Origin: Escherichia coli
GTDB taxonomy: Bacteria; Pseudomonadota; Gammaproteobacteria; Enterobacterales; Enterobacteriaceae
Strand: one strand, 5' to 3'
Assembly (NCBI RefSeq): GCF_003018255.1
Contig: NZ_CP027440.1
Length of the DNA: 64,000 nucleotides
Below the pieces are notes generated by a model. It worked only from the letters and a program-made list of their open reading frames with translations. It did not search any database and was not told where the DNA came from. This document shows, piece after piece, positions 58,581-62,387 of the stretch; within the stretch, counting starts at the first letter, position 1; each line of letters starts with the position of its first letter. Position numbers and translations under genes: made by a program.

Positions 58581-58997
58581 TTACGGCAGTGGCGTCGGTA
58601 ACGGCGCTTTATCCAGCGCGGCGGCACACTCTGCCGTCGGGCGATCCACACGCTCCATCGTCATACCATCGTACTCAATGGTGTTACCGTCACGCTCAAC
58701 CTCGTACAGCTCACGTTTCACGGTAACGTTAGTGAGATCATCAGACATCAATGTCAACTTACCCGGCACGGCAATCACCCGCTGCCACTGACGGCAATCC
58801 AGGGTATCGCCCTCTTTAGTGACAATCAGGCTGCCTATCGCTTCCGGACTGACCAGCGCACTTTGCGGCCCTTTGGTCTGCCAGTAGCCCGCCAGCCAGT
58901 CCGGCGCGGGGGTTTTCACGACATTGTTATAGTTTTCGACTTCGGCACAGCCCGCCAGCAACATGAGCGCGCCTGCAATTGCGAGTTTTTTCATCAT
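58581..58997 (-). CDS. yedD: Lipoprotein YedD
   Basis: 138 aa with lipobox MMKKLAIAGALMLLAGC. Confidence 0.88.
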   Translation of the reverse strand: MMKKLAIAGALMLLAGCAEVENYNNVVKTPAPDWLAGYWQTKGPQSALVSPEAIGSLIVTKEGDTLDCRQWQRVIAVPGKLTLMSDDLTNVTVKRELYEVERDGNTIEYDGMTMERVDRPTAECAAALDKAPLPTPLP

Positions 58998-59180
58998 TCG
59001 TCCTGCATGAGAAGAAAAGAGGATTGTGGCATTAAAGCCCTGATGTCGCCAGCCTTTCCAGGTTCAGAGAGAAATTTGATCTAACTATTATTTTTGTGAA
59101 TTATTACCCCGAAAATAAATTTGCTTGATGTATGATTCGCAACTCTTGTTTCAAACCTTCTGAGTTCAGAGGCTACATAC

Positions 59181-60386
59181 ATGTCATGGCAGCAATTCAA
59201 ACACGCCTGGTTGATTAAATTCTGGGCCCCCATCCCTGCGGTCATCGCGGCGGGTATTCTCTCCACTTACTACTTTGGCATCACTGGCACCTTTTGGGCT
59301 GTCACGGGTGAATTTACCCGCTGGGGCGGTCAGCTTCTGCAGCTGTTCGGCGTCCATGCTGAAGAGTGGGGTTATTTTAAAATTATCCATCTGGAAGGAT
59401 CGCCATTAACCCGCATCGACGGCATGATGATCCTCGGTATGTTTGGCGGCTGCTTTGCTGCAGCGCTGTGGGCCAACAATGTCAAACTACGCATGCCACG
59501 CAGCCGTATCCGCATTATGCAGGCCATTATTGGCGGCATTATCGCTGGTTTTGGCGCGCGTCTGGCAATGGGCTGTAACCTGGCGGCGTTCTTTACCGGC
59601 ATTCCTCAGTTCTCGCTGCATGCCTGGTTCTTTGCCATCGCCACTGCCATTGGTTCATGGTTTGGCGCGCGCTTTACCCTGCTGCCCATCTTCCGTATTC
59701 CCGTGAAAATGCAGAAAGTTTCTGCCGCCTCACCGCTGACGCAAAAACCGGATCAGGCGCGGCGTCGTTTTCGTCTCGGGATGCTGGTCTTTTTCGGCAT
59801 GCTGGGCTGGGCGCTGCTCACGGCGATGAACCAACCAAAACTGGGGCTGGCAATGCTGTTTGGCGTCGGCTTTGGTTTACTGATTGAACGTGCGCAAATC
59901 TGCTTTACTTCGGCGTTCCGCGATATGTGGATCACCGGACGTACCCATATGGCGAAAGCAATCATTATCGGTATGGCGGTGAGTGCCATCGGGATCTTCA
60001 GTTACGTACAGTTAGGCGTTGAACCTAAAATCATGTGGGCGGGACCAAATGCGGTAATTGGTGGTTTACTTTTTGGTTTTGGCATCGTGCTGGCAGGCGG
60101 CTGCGAAACCGGCTGGATGTACCGCGCGGTAGAAGGCCAGGTGCACTACTGGTGGGTCGGTCTGGGCAACGTGATCGGCTCAACGATTCTGGCGTATTAC
60201 TGGGATGATTTCGCTCCGGCGCTGGCCACCGACTGGGACAAAATCAACCTGCTGAAAACCTTTGGTCCGATGGGTGGCCTGCTGGTGACATATTTGCTGT
60301 TGTTTGCAGCTCTAATGTTGATTATCGGCTGGGAAAAACGCTTCTTCCGCCGTGCGGCACCGCAGATTGCTAAGGAGATCGCATGA
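59181..60386 (+). CDS. yedE: YeeE/YedE-family inner membrane transporter (proposed selenium/sulfur compound transport)
   Basis: 401 aa polytopic membrane protein with duplicated conserved Cys-containing segments (GGCETGW); operonic with the TusA-like yedF. Confidence 0.88.
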   Translation: MSWQQFKHAWLIKFWAPIPAVIAAGILSTYYFGITGTFWAVTGEFTRWGGQLLQLFGVHAEEWGYFKIIHLEGSPLTRIDGMMILGMFGGCFAAALWANNVKLRMPRSRIRIMQAIIGGIIAGFGARLAMGCNLAAFFTGIPQFSLHAWFFAIATAIGSWFGARFTLLPIFRIPVKMQKVSAASPLTQKPDQARRRFRLGMLVFFGMLGWALLTAMNQPKLGLAMLFGVGFGLLIERAQICFTSAFRDMWITGRTHMAKAIIIGMAVSAIGIFSYVQLGVEPKIMWAGPNAVIGGLLFGFGIVLAGGCETGWMYRAVEGQVHYWWVGLGNVIGSTILAYYWDDFAPALATDWDKINLLKTFGPMGGLLVTYLLLFAALMLIIGWEKRFFRRAAPQIAKEIA

Positions 60387-60616
60387 AAAATATCGTTCCT
60401 GATTACCGTCTTGATATGGTGGGTGAACCCTGCCCTTATCCGGCTGTCGCAACCCTTGAGGCGATGCCGCAGTTAAAAAAAGGGGAGATCCTGGAAGTGG
60501 TGAGCGACTGTCCGCAGTCGATCAATAATATTCCACTGGATGCGCGTAATCACGGCTATACGGTGCTGGATATTCAGCAAGACGGGCCGACCATTCGTTA
60601 TTTAATTCAGAAGTAA
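60383..60616 (+). CDS. yedF: TusA-like sulfurtransferase-fold protein YedF
   Basis: 77 aa with the CPxP motif (GEPCPYP); start overlaps the yedE stop. Confidence 0.9.
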   Translation: MKNIVPDYRLDMVGEPCPYPAVATLEAMPQLKKGEILEVVSDCPQSINNIPLDARNHGYTVLDIQQDGPTIRYLIQK

Positions 60617-60724
60617 TCCCTCATTCCCGCTGTGGCCCACAGCGGGAACATCGTTACCACTCTATCACATAGATTTTACCCGCCCCCTCTCCTATTCTTT
60701 TCAGTGTGCTCTCAGGAGGTTTCT

Positions 60725-61393
60725 ATGTGTGGACGCTTTGCCCAATCCCAAACGCGTGAAGATTACCTCGCGTTTCTCGCGGAAGATATTGAACGCGATA
60801 TTCCCTACGATCCCGAACCTATTGGCAGATACAACGTCGCGCCGGGAACCAAAGTCCTTCTGCTCAGTGAACGTGATGAACACCTTCATCTGGATCCGGT
60901 TTTCTGGGGATATGCTCCCGGATGGTGGGATAAACCGCCGCTGATTAACGCCCGCGTAGAAACTGCCGCAACCAGTCGCATGTTTAAACCGCTCTGGCAA
61001 CACGGTCGGGCAATCTGTTTTGCCGATGGCTGGTTTGAGTGGAAAAAAGAAGGCGACAAAAAACAGCCTTATTTTATCTATCGCGCTGACGGACAACCTG
61101 TTTTTATGGCCGCGATAGGTAGCACACCGTTTGAGCGTGGTGACGAAGCCGAAGGATTTTTGATCGTCACTGCGGCGGCAGATCAAGGTCTGGTAGATAT
61201 TCATGACCGCCGCCCGCTGGTTCTGTCGCCAGAAGCTGTACGGGAATGGATGCGGCAAGAGGTTGGCGGTAAAGAAGCCTCAGAAATTGCTGCCAGTGGC
61301 TGTGTGCCAGCAAACCAGTTCACCTGGCACCCGGTATCGTGCGCGGTGGGTAATGTTAAAAACCAGGGAGCGGCGTTAATTCAACCTGTTTGA
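60725..61393 (+). CDS. yedK: SOS-response associated peptidase (SRAP) YedK; abasic-site DNA-protein crosslinking enzyme
   Basis: Real start MCGRFAQ at 60725, preceded by SD aggaggt at 60714-60720; the ORF-track start at 60632 is an upstream extension; 222 aa. Confidence 0.93.
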   Translation: MCGRFAQSQTREDYLAFLAEDIERDIPYDPEPIGRYNVAPGTKVLLLSERDEHLHLDPVFWGYAPGWWDKPPLINARVETAATSRMFKPLWQHGRAICFADGWFEWKKEGDKKQPYFIYRADGQPVFMAAIGSTPFERGDEAEGFLIVTAAADQGLVDIHDRRPLVLSPEAVREWMRQEVGGKEASEIAASGCVPANQFTWHPVSCAVGNVKNQGAALIQPV

Positions 61394-61983: not shown

Positions 61984-61990
61984 GCCAGAC

Positions 61991-62032
61991 GCAGCACATT
62001 CTTGCATTCGACGTGCTGCGCCTTTATTTATT
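61991..62032 (+). terminator. Rho-independent terminator downstream of yedL
   Basis: Stem gcagcac (61991-61997) / gtgctgc (62013-62019) followed by a T-rich tract cctttatttatt. Confidence 0.65.
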
Positions 62033-62387
62033 ATCAGCCGCAAATGTCTTGTCCTTAGACGCTCTTTCCACATGCGCCACAAGAAACCTCTATTCCAGTG
62101 ACACAATTATGCCTGATTATTTCCCTAGCCCGGAATATGAATAAAAACATCAAATAAGATGAAATTATCAAAATATTAATGTTGCGTCTGAGGTCGTAAC
62201 AACATCCGACGTGGTGATATGTCAAATGAGACACTCTGATGGTCAAAGGGTTTATCGCGTTTACAGATCGTGGATGGCAGAAAACTTTCAGAATCAGGTT
62301 TCCATTTTAAACCAGAAATTAAGTGAGTTTGTCCCATCCATGCCCCACGCGGTGAGATCGGATGTAATCAACAACAGGTTACAAAAC

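Follow-up and report, generated by a model that had tools for sequence, protein, structure and literature searches.

In Escherichia coli, the selAB leader carries an element located 3 nt from the Shine-Dalgarno (SD) sequence, to which SelB binds together with GTP and selenocysteinyl-tRNA (Sec-tRNASec), and this binding represses selAB (Thanbichler and Bock 2002, as related in bioRxiv 10.64898/2026.03.03.709296). Uptake by the membrane transporter YeeE requires its partner protein YeeD, in which a conserved, reactive cysteine is modified by the substrate. In Campylobacter jejuni, the genes fdhTU have been reported as accessory genes for the biogenesis of the selenium-dependent formate dehydrogenase (FDH) (Shaw 2012; Pryjma 2012). 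Here, we describe the yedE-yedF gene pair (yedEF) in a 64,000-nt stretch of E. coli DNA (contig NZ_CP027440.1 of assembly GCF_003018255.1; the whole stretch is hereafter referred to as the window), and focus on a hairpin of 17 nt located in the leader of yedE. The pair itself is known and has been a candidate for a selenium role since 2012–2015; what is new is a putative selAB-type operator at yedE that resembles a selenocysteine insertion sequence (SECIS). A 2024 paper stated that a selenium-specific transporter is not known in any organism, a 2026 review stated the same for prokaryotes, and the RefSeq annotation of K-12 reads 'putative selenium transporter YedE' and 'putative sulfurtransferase YedF'. 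Thus, a preliminary description of this locus was right to call the substrate of YedE/YedF in E. coli proposed and not established. We give a somewhat better than even chance to the interpretation that yedEF is a translationally coupled selenium-acquisition module with a SelB-controlled leader.

The hairpin is located at positions 59156..59172 (+ strand) and ends 8 nt before the ATG of yedE. As RNA, it reads CC-U(bulge)-UCUG-[AGUU]-CAGA-GG (loops are given in square brackets throughout): 2 bp of CC/GG are followed by a bulged U, 4 bp of UCUG/CAGA and the loop AGUU, and the 3′ arm constitutes the SD sequence AGAGG. When the 200 nt upstream of yedE were aligned among 80 species of the Enterobacteriaceae, on which all the conservation counts for this family are based, the block CCTTCTGAGTTCAGAGG at 59156-59172 stood out. 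Its core, TCTGAGTTCAGAGG, was invariant over the 69 distinct leaders, while the flanks, including the spacer of 7–9 nt to the ATG, vary. The loop AGUU equals the SD sequence in invariance, and the 5′ arm is also invariant. The variants that were seen are compatible with an RNA stem: a compensating double insertion (TCTTGA...TCAAGA) is found in two species of Trabulsiella, the outer C-G pair is changed to U.G in five species, and the bulged base is changed in two. The hairpin is identical in K-12. It is conserved beyond the demands of the SD sequence alone.

This hairpin has the same geometry as the apical minihelix of the fdhF SECIS, which is GG-U-UGCA[GGUC]UGCA-CC in the K-12 sequence, and the predicted stabilities are close to each other (yedE, −5.9 kcal/mol; fdhF, −5.7; fdnG, −6.0). 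In the 17-nt minihelix of fdhF, SelB recognizes G23 and U24 of the loop and the bulged U17. The selAB leader element, CC-U-UCUC[CGUGU]GAGA-GG, is also located in a 5′-untranslated region (5′-UTR) and, as at yedE, has a stem of 2 bp and 4 bp separated by a bulged U, with G-U at loop positions 2–3; its stem differs from that of yedE only in the closing pair. The occurrence of this geometry was examined with a strict descriptor derived from fdhF, in which 2 Watson-Crick bp are followed by a bulged T, a further 4 Watson-Crick bp and the loop N-G-T-N. This descriptor recovers the fdhF SECIS and, in a version with a 5-nt loop, the selAB element. On both strands of the window, only one match was found, and it is the one at the yedE ribosome-binding site; simulated sequences gave 0.33 matches per window. 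The background in 3.0 Mb of real enterobacterial sequence, on both strands and outside yedE, was about 5e-6 per nt. The lone match in the window is unremarkable by itself. What is remarkable is its placement at the ribosome-binding site and its invariance in the 80 species.

The yedEF genes are known to vary in expression together with other operons. In a published study, independent-component analysis of transcriptomes from E. coli yielded an uncharacterised iModulon consisting of yedEF, 'ynjXYZABCD', yjiLM and ynjE, the activity of which is higher anaerobically and lower in fnr and arcA mutants. We read the label 'ynjXYZABCD' as ydjXYZ-ynjABCD. The hairpin geometry recurs at the start sites of these operons in K-12. 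The ydjX leader (L090:3372-3388) contains a strict match, AU-U-AUCA[AGUU]UGAU-AU, that ends 13 nt before the ATG, directly before the SD sequence. A strict match at ynjE (L090:9467-9483), GA-U-GAAA[CGUG]UUUC-UC, extends across the start codon, such that the bulged U is the U of AUG. The yjiM leader (L091:6861-6878, minus strand) has the version with a 5-nt loop, UC-U-CCCG[UGGUA]CGGG-GA, which runs into the SD sequence. In four 60-nt start regions, about 1e-3 strict matches are expected from a background of 3-5e-6 per nt, and three were observed. Four strict matches were found when about 103 kb of real sequence from E. coli was examined: the yedE, ydjX and ynjE sites and the fdhF SECIS. The leaders of selD and tsuA gave no descriptor match. 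The yjiM hairpin is retained in Citrobacter ([UGUUA]), Klebsiella ([UGUA], a strict match) and Atlantibacter ([UGUAA], with G as the bulge), with a different upstream gene in each. At ynjE, the codons ATG AAA CGT GTT TCT CAA are identical, including the synonymous sites, down to 83% protein identity, while the upstream sequence has diverged. Conservation at the sequence level thus supports the yjiM and ynjE sites, and is mixed for ydjX, as described below.

Two other interpretations of the hairpin were considered. One, which was rejected, is a recoding SECIS or a hidden selenoprotein in an upstream open reading frame (ORF). No UGA exists upstream of the hairpin (no TGA at 59142-59144 or nearby), and because the leader lacks an upstream UGA, the yedE hairpin is not a recoding signal. 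Another is a palindromic DNA operator, which was set aside as the main explanation. The stems differ wholly between the operons while the geometry and the loop are kept, and the change from C-G to U.G keeps the pairing of RNA, not that of DNA.

Similar hairpins, with covarying stems, were found in yedE leaders beyond the Enterobacteriaceae. In Hafnia, the leader contains CAG-U-UCCCC[GGUC]GGGGG-CUG, with the loop of fdhF and the bulged U, and the yedE/fdhT leader of Wolinella contains CGCCA[GGUC]UGGCG, again with the fdhF loop. The hairpin is CAUCA[AGUUU]UGAUG in the fdhT leader of C. jejuni and UGUCA[AGUUU]UGACA in C. lari, the two being related by two compensatory pair changes. Helicobacter jaachi has GCUUU[CGUGU]AAGGC, with the selAB loop, and a metagenomic homologue of 55% identity has CUCCA[AGUU]UGGAG about 80 nt upstream of the first (TusA-like) gene. 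The loop starts at −32 in Hafnia, C. jejuni, C. lari and Wolinella. A loose descriptor (at least 5 bp, and a loop of 4–5 nt with GU at positions 2–3) was positive in 6 of 9 independent lineages, its background being 5.2e-4 per nt, which corresponds to about 0.05 in a leader of 90 nt. The hairpins of the Campylobacterota have no bulged U and lie upstream of the SD sequence rather than over it; if they act, they would differ in detail from that of yedE. That of C. jejuni fdhT shares with the SECIS of the selD gene of the same organism a G-U in the apical loop, and the two are otherwise dissimilar. If the proposed control is real, it would be ancient, given the leader hairpins of Hafnia, Campylobacter, Wolinella and Helicobacter.

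The two genes are located on the + strand. The yedE coding sequence (59181..60386) is an ORF of 401 aa for an inner-membrane protein of the YedE/FdhT family within the YeeE/YedE superfamily, and the yedF coding sequence (60383..60616) is an ORF of 77 aa for a TusA-fold protein with C17 in a CPxP motif. The family matches and the ORF coordinates agree with the gene identities and extents given in the preliminary description, and so does the 4-bp overlap: the sequence ATGA at 60383..60386 (+) contains both the stop of yedE and the start of yedF, which we read as translational coupling. The SD sequence of yedF, AAGGAG, lies within the 3′ end of yedE (60372..60377, +), and AAGGA(G/A) is retained at this position across the other Enterobacteriaceae species compared. 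On the NCBIfam model NF033796 ('selenium metabolism membrane protein YedE/FdhT'), YedE scored 620.3 bits against a cut-off of 350, with the match spanning residues 10-390 and model positions 2-385 of 387. YedF scored 156.8 bits on NF008242 (cut-off 79) over its full length. On the two TsuA/YeeE models, YedE gave partial, permuted matches below the cut-offs (NF052577, 120.9 against 400; NF041049, 78.4 against 645), and YedF was below the cut-offs of the TusA model NF001423 (32.2 bits against 78) and the TsuB/YeeD model NF041048 (43.1 against 147.5). Of the selenium-type or thiosulfate-type compounds that had been proposed for this pair, selenium is favoured over thiosulfate, in view of the low scores of YedE on the TsuA models.

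YedE is composed of two related halves. The Pfam family Sulf_transp (PF04143) matched it in two stretches, and residues 114-159 and 290-334 form an internal repeat (35% identity, E 5e-6), each copy bearing a GGxxxGFGxxLAxGC motif that ends in GC (C132 and C308). The two cysteine-containing repeats of the preliminary description are therefore real. A third conserved cysteine, C241 (QICFTSAFRD), was absent from that description; it is invariant in homologues with as little as about 26% identity, and C91 is not conserved among them. Solved structures exist, among the relatives, only for the YeeE thiosulfate transporter from Spirochaeta thermophila and for its fusion YeeE-YeeD (E about 5e-27), and the alignment between YedE and YeeE is permuted: YedE 224-333 corresponds to YeeE 5-116, and YedE 71-164 to YeeE 233-325. 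The alignment of E. coli TsuA to YedE shows the same permutation. Because of this permuted alignment, the three cysteines of YedE can be equated with those of S. thermophila YeeE: Cys132 (AMGCN; codon at 59574..59576, +; nearly invariant) with C293, Cys241 (codon at 59901..59903, +; invariant) with C22, and Cys308 (AGGCETGW; codon at 60102..60104, +; nearly invariant or invariant) with C91. In the AlphaFold model of YedE (predicted local distance difference test 85.7; predicted template modelling score 0.85), a disordered linker is located at 174-184. Its significant fold matches in the PDB were only the YeeE structures 6LEO, 6LEP, 8K1R and 8J4C, with a probability of 1.00 and template modelling (TM) scores of 0.43-0.53; these modest TM-scores may reflect the swapped halves in the model.

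Relatives of YedE were sought among 1.8 billion representative proteins, and both kinds were found, namely colinear ones and ones of about 400 aa with a YeeE-like order. In archaea, the genes have been reported to be split in two. The half-swap in the sequences suggests that the permutation arose through gene fission and refusion. The 400-aa relatives with the YeeE-like order (P0173, P0181, P0186, P0218 and P0225) scored 195-241 bits on NF033796, in two stretches.

YedF matched the Pfam family TusA (PF01206) and is identical in sequence to PDB 1JE3, which has the TusA fold. Its length is 77 aa in all of the 80 species, and the motif EPCPYP is found in 79. This is the CPxP motif that had been noted before, reading E-P-C17-P-Y-P; the codon of Cys17, which aligns with the CP motif of YeeD/TsuB, is at 60431..60433 (+). 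YedF and E. coli TsuB are 33% identical. The mean identity among the 80 species is 89% for YedE and 96% for YedF.

The adjacency of yedE and yedF was found in 80/80 species, with the ATGA overlap in 59, and Hafnia, C. lari and two distant metagenomic homologues likewise show a 4-bp overlap between yedE and the TusA gene. At all of the nine distant loci (C. jejuni, C. lari, Wolinella, Helicobacter, Hafnia, Effusibacillus, two high-GC metagenomic lineages and one lineage with reversed order), a TusA-type gene adjoins the YedE-type gene, downstream of it in eight and upstream in one. Thus, yedE-yedF is a genuine conserved two-gene unit and not a chance arrangement. At the reversed locus (L175:946-2509), which belongs to the metagenomic homologue of 55% identity, a TusA-like gene of 107 aa precedes the yedE-like gene.

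The surroundings of this unit are variable. The gene yedD is next to yedEF in 45 of the 80 species; among the other 35, Enterobacter cloacae has the pair after an apparent trp operon (trpA-ompW), and the Klebsiella locus is different again. On the downstream side, yedK was detected near yedEF in 1/80 species. In two records labelled E. coli (L003 and L004), yedE is 99% identical, yedK was not detected, and the DNA 3′ of yedF has little or no similarity to the window. These observations indicate that the flank downstream of yedF is variable. Since the flanking genes are unrelated, yedEF can be regarded as a self-contained cassette. The neighbours of the distant homologues are likewise housekeeping genes, except in C. 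jejuni, and the neighbourhood therefore supports only the pairing of YedE with TusA. As for the selD/ybbB context to which the preliminary description had pointed, the Enterobacteriaceae neighbourhoods gave no support, while in C. jejuni, both selD and a gene of TIGR03527 are found at a distance of about 5 kb from fdhTU, with putP-putA between them. The C. jejuni selD gene (L083:11609-12631, minus strand) has an in-frame UGA at codon 17, aligned with Cys17 of E. coli SelD, and the TIGR03527 'YedF' gene (190 aa; L083:12641-13213, minus strand) adjoins it as the neighbouring ORF. In K-12, ynjE (1,839,467-1,840,774), which is located at the end of the ydjXYZ-ynjABCD-ynjE cluster, is about 6 kb from selD (1,846,965-1,848,008).

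From these data, we infer the selenium substrate, the direction of import, the transfer of selenium to YedF, the binding of SelB and the sign of the regulation in the following mechanism. YedE would be a channel-like importer of the YeeE type in the inner membrane, through which a selenium species would move inward via a pore with three cysteines (C241, C308 and C132). By analogy with YeeD/TsuB, C17 of YedF would take the incoming chalcogen at the channel exit and hand it on towards SelD. The expression of yedEF would be set post-transcriptionally at the hairpin in which the SD sequence of yedE is embedded. This leader has the geometry and the location (in the 5′-UTR and at the SD sequence) of the selAB-type operator, and binding and repression by SelB are predicted by analogy: SelB with GTP and Sec-tRNASec would bind the hairpin and block initiation, as at selAB, and translation of yedEF would proceed under a shortage of Sec-tRNASec or when selenoprotein mRNAs titrate SelB away. 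The pair is thus probably tuned to the selenium status of the cell. Under anaerobic conditions, the abundant mRNAs of fdhF and fdnG would draw off SelB and use up Sec-tRNASec, which would explain the higher anaerobic activity of the iModulon and its drop in the fnr and arcA mutants. Repression in selenium-replete cells would fit an importer better than an exporter. In Methanococcus maripaludis, the yedE mRNA rose by 5.3 log2 upon selenium starvation, and the proposed mechanism agrees with this induction.

The same device at ydjX, ynjE and yjiM would define a SelB regulon of four operons. We place slightly below even the broader proposal that SelB acts as the sensor of a post-transcriptional selenium regulon, comprising yedEF, ydjXYZ-ynjABCD, ynjE and yjiLM, through SECIS-like minihelices at the start sites. 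The products of these genes would be a channel and a carrier (yedEF), DedA proteins and an ATP-binding cassette transporter (ydjXYZ-ynjABCD), a rhodanese (ynjE), and a double-cubane reductase and its activase (yjiLM). YjiM is now classed as a double-cubane reductase, and in Slackia, genes of the YedE/YedF type are associated with a 2-hydroxyglutaryl-CoA-dehydratase-like protein and its activase; the yjiLM link seems, by analogy, to echo this association. The presence of several operons in this set may account for the lack of effect in single mutants. The hairpin is important because it would tie yedEF to the selenocysteine machinery by sequence, independently of the gene neighbourhood, and because a motif on three co-regulated operons would explain an orphan transcriptional module of E. 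coli. If SelB binding is confirmed, a selenium regulon would be defined, and if the importer function is also true, the long-sought dedicated machinery of bacterial selenium uptake would be identified.

Several points weigh against the interpretation of yedEF as a SelB-controlled importer. Concerning the leader itself, the folding of its 61 nt was no better than that of shuffled sequences (z = 0.64), and Rfam gave no match at the yedE leader or locus. In the control, the Rfam model SECIS_2 found fdhF at 87 bits and missed the selAB leader element; since this element is reported to bind SelB, the negative result of Rfam at yedE is uninformative. The position of the hairpin in the transcript depends on a candidate −10 hexamer, TATGAT (59131..59136, +), which is part of a TAnnAT block conserved in the 80-species upstream alignment; with it, transcription would start near 59142, and the hairpin would occupy about +13 to +30 of the mRNA. 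A scan with the promoter consensus chose a different candidate, further upstream (59063-59091). Moreover, the iModulon is a signal at the mRNA level, and a translational operator must therefore act through mRNA stability or polarity. Concerning the recurrence of the motif, the ydjX relatives at 74-76% identity keep the stem, with the loop AGCU or AGGCU that lacks GU, one relative has a perfect DNA palindrome, ATCAAGCTTGAT, and the relatives at 66-68% identity have no hairpin. In view of the palindrome sequence, a DNA operator is conceivable for ydjX. No leader hairpin of this kind was found in Effusibacillus and the two high-GC lineages. The neighbours of yedEF in the 80 Enterobacteriaceae species are unrelated housekeeping genes with no link to selD. 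Concerning the published experiments, no transport, binding or phenotype data for E. coli yedEF were found in the searchable literature, the deletion of yedE in M. maripaludis had no clear selenium phenotype, the Salmonella yedF mutant is pleiotropic, and yedF was induced in serum alongside genes of sulfur starvation and the CysB regulon (yeeED, cbl and ydjN). A regulatory link between SelB and yedE, ydjX, yjiM or ynjE, as well as a link between selenium and the ynj/ydj/yji genes beyond the iModulon paper, was not found in the searchable literature, the coverage of which excludes subscription journals.

The alternative closest to the above interpretation accepts that yedEF handles selenium and regards the hairpin as a plain structure that occludes the SD sequence, or as the site of another factor, with its SECIS likeness being coincidental. 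The SD-like right arm alone constrains the left arm, and the lack of a thermodynamic signal and of an Rfam match, the loss of the loop GU from ydjX relatives that keep the stem, and the absence of the bulged U and the position upstream of the SD sequence in Campylobacter, Wolinella and Helicobacter would all be understandable in these terms. Occlusion of the SD sequence does not, however, account for a loop that matches the SD sequence in its invariance, for a geometry identical to those of fdhF and fdnG with almost the stem of the selAB element, for the motif at three more co-regulated start sites with unrelated stem sequences, or for the loop GGUC of fdhF in Hafnia and Wolinella. We consider this alternative unlikely. 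Rather unlikely, too, is the possibility that YedE/YedF is a second importer of sulfur compounds (thiosulfate, polysulfide or sulfane sulfur) and a TsuA/TsuB paralogue without specificity for selenium, the hairpin being unrelated to its function. The Pfam family, the fold and the three cysteines of YeeE, the TusA-like partner as in YeeE/YeeD, the induction of yedF in serum with CysB-regulon genes, and the import of sulfur species by other family members are all in line with it. On the other hand, YedE reaches only 121 of the required 400 bits and 78 of 645 on the TsuA models, and YedF 43 of 147.5 on that of TsuB; tsuAB is already present in E. coli, with no SECIS-like hairpin in the leader of tsuA. 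The orthologous FdhTU is reported to be tied to the selenium-dependent FDH, and selenium is also indicated by the SECIS-like operator and by the set of co-regulated genes.

The direction of transport and the role of YedF give rise to two further alternatives. Lin et al. (2015) called it an 'attractive hypothesis' that YedE is a selenium exporter or detoxification channel, in which case YedF would serve as a buffer for reactive selenium. Sulfate or other carriers can admit bulk selenate and selenite, and the channel-like YeeE architecture leaves the direction unfixed; however, selAB-like repression would lower yedEF when selenium is plentiful, which is the opposite of what an exporter needs, yedE of M. 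maripaludis is induced by selenium starvation, and the title of Shaw (2012) ties fdhTU to the biogenesis of a selenoenzyme. We therefore regard export as improbable. It is even harder to believe that the main role of YedF is to regulate genes for virulence, motility and anaerobic life, with yedE as an unrelated membrane partner. This idea derives from Salmonella, in which the knock-out of yedF ('vrf') decreased the expression of genes for motility, Salmonella pathogenicity island 1 and lipopolysaccharide and increased that of genes for anaerobic metabolism, with complementation. Against it stand the 77-aa TusA fold with a CPxP cysteine, in which no DNA-binding family was detected, and the coupling of yedF to yedE in every lineage examined; besides, we would expect pleiotropy if selenoenzyme or anaerobic metabolism is disturbed. 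A published biochemical function unrelated to the one proposed in the preliminary description was not found in the searchable literature, the 'vrf' paper reporting only pleiotropic phenotypes.

The other features of the locus are as follows. The gene order on this part of the E. coli chromosome is amyA-yedD-yedE-yedF-yedK-yedL-fliE, and the locus was found, annotated as yedE/yedF, in 5377 of 5426 complete E. coli genomes. The 1.9-kb stretch from yedD to yedK (58900-60800) is 100% identical in only two RefSeq genomes (JNE23-011 and JNE112863), and the remaining 5375 genomes are 95-99% identical to the window there. As compared with K-12, YedE has 1 aa change for 28 nt changes and YedF none for 3 nt changes, which indicates that both proteins are under strong purifying selection. 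About 1.2 kb between yedL and fliE in K-12 (L183:3717-4931), including much of the yedN pseudogene, is missing from the window strain (61984-62387). Upstream of yedE, a conserved TTGATC block (59076..59081, +) occurs about 60 nt from the putative transcription start in the leaders adjacent to yedD; it is possibly an activator half-site of the FNR-like TTGAT type, for which the second half-site is poor. An unconserved TGTGA (59095-59099), which is a CRP-like half-site, is located about 40 nt upstream of the putative start. Either of these sequences could relate to the reported Fnr/ArcA dependence. On the downstream side, a perfect 10-bp inverted repeat, CCCGCTGTGG-C-CCACAGCGGG (60626..60646, +), starts 10 nt past the yedF stop and is not accompanied by a T-tract. 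It is also present in K-12, with one central change. Although the terminator scan did not call it, this inverted repeat is a likely candidate for the 3′-end hairpin of the yedEF transcript.

Finally, the locus was compared with the described systems. The selenium genes 'YedE' and 'YedF' of the comparative-genomic study of Lin 2015, which co-occur with selD, are TIGR04112 and TIGR03527. These share with E. coli YedE/YedF the superfamilies (PF04143 and an N-terminal SirA/TusA domain) and the proposed role in selenium metabolism. They differ from them in that E. coli YedE gave no match to TIGR04112 (cut-off 200 bits) at E ≤ 0.001, C. jejuni FdhT scored only 33.9 bits there, and YedF scored 22.7 bits on TIGR03527 (cut-off 110) in the N-terminal domain only; the members of TIGR03527 are about 190 aa long with SirA plus a DsrE-like domain, and the latter is missing from YedF. 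By these matches, the two pairs are distinct families under one name, and the shared name has led papers to move evidence between non-orthologous proteins. The comparative-genomic basis cited in the preliminary description thus concerns families that are not those of E. coli. As judged by the sequences, the proper functional anchor is FdhT/FdhU of C. jejuni (Cj1500/Cj1501), the true counterparts of E. coli YedE/YedF. FdhT scored 542.7 bits on NF033796 and is 44% identical to and colinear with YedE in a single 398-aa alignment; FdhU scored 133.5 bits on NF008242, and its TusA-like gene is directly downstream of fdhT, as in yedEF. C. jejuni has a TIGR03527 gene (196 bits) besides fdhU. The fdhT hairpin has a loop containing GU like that of yedE, but it has no bulged U and is located about 23 nt upstream of the start.

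TsuA/TsuB (YeeE/YeeD; PDB 6LEO, 8J4C and 8K1R) has in common with YedEF the Pfam family, the fold and the three cysteines, as well as an adjacent TusA-like partner with a CP cysteine in a small two-gene operon. In contrast to TsuA/YeeE, YedE has its halves in the swapped order, is about 50 aa longer with the disordered linker at 174-184, and has family-specific invariant residues including E309, H147 and the VTGEFTRWGG block. Another difference is that the tsuA leader lacks the SECIS-like hairpin found in the yedE leader. Among the hairpins, the SECIS of fdnG/fdoG, GG-U-AGCA[AGUCU]UGCU-CC, has the same geometry as that of yedE on the folded sequence, and the loop of fdnG starts with AGU like that of yedE. 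The SECIS elements of fdhF and fdnG/fdoG are, however, recoding signals in coding regions, whereas the yedE hairpin is in a 5′-UTR without an upstream UGA. It shares the location in a 5′-UTR with the selAB element, from which it differs in that its loop is the tetraloop AGUU, of the size found in fdhF, instead of CGUGU, and in that it contains the SD sequence itself.

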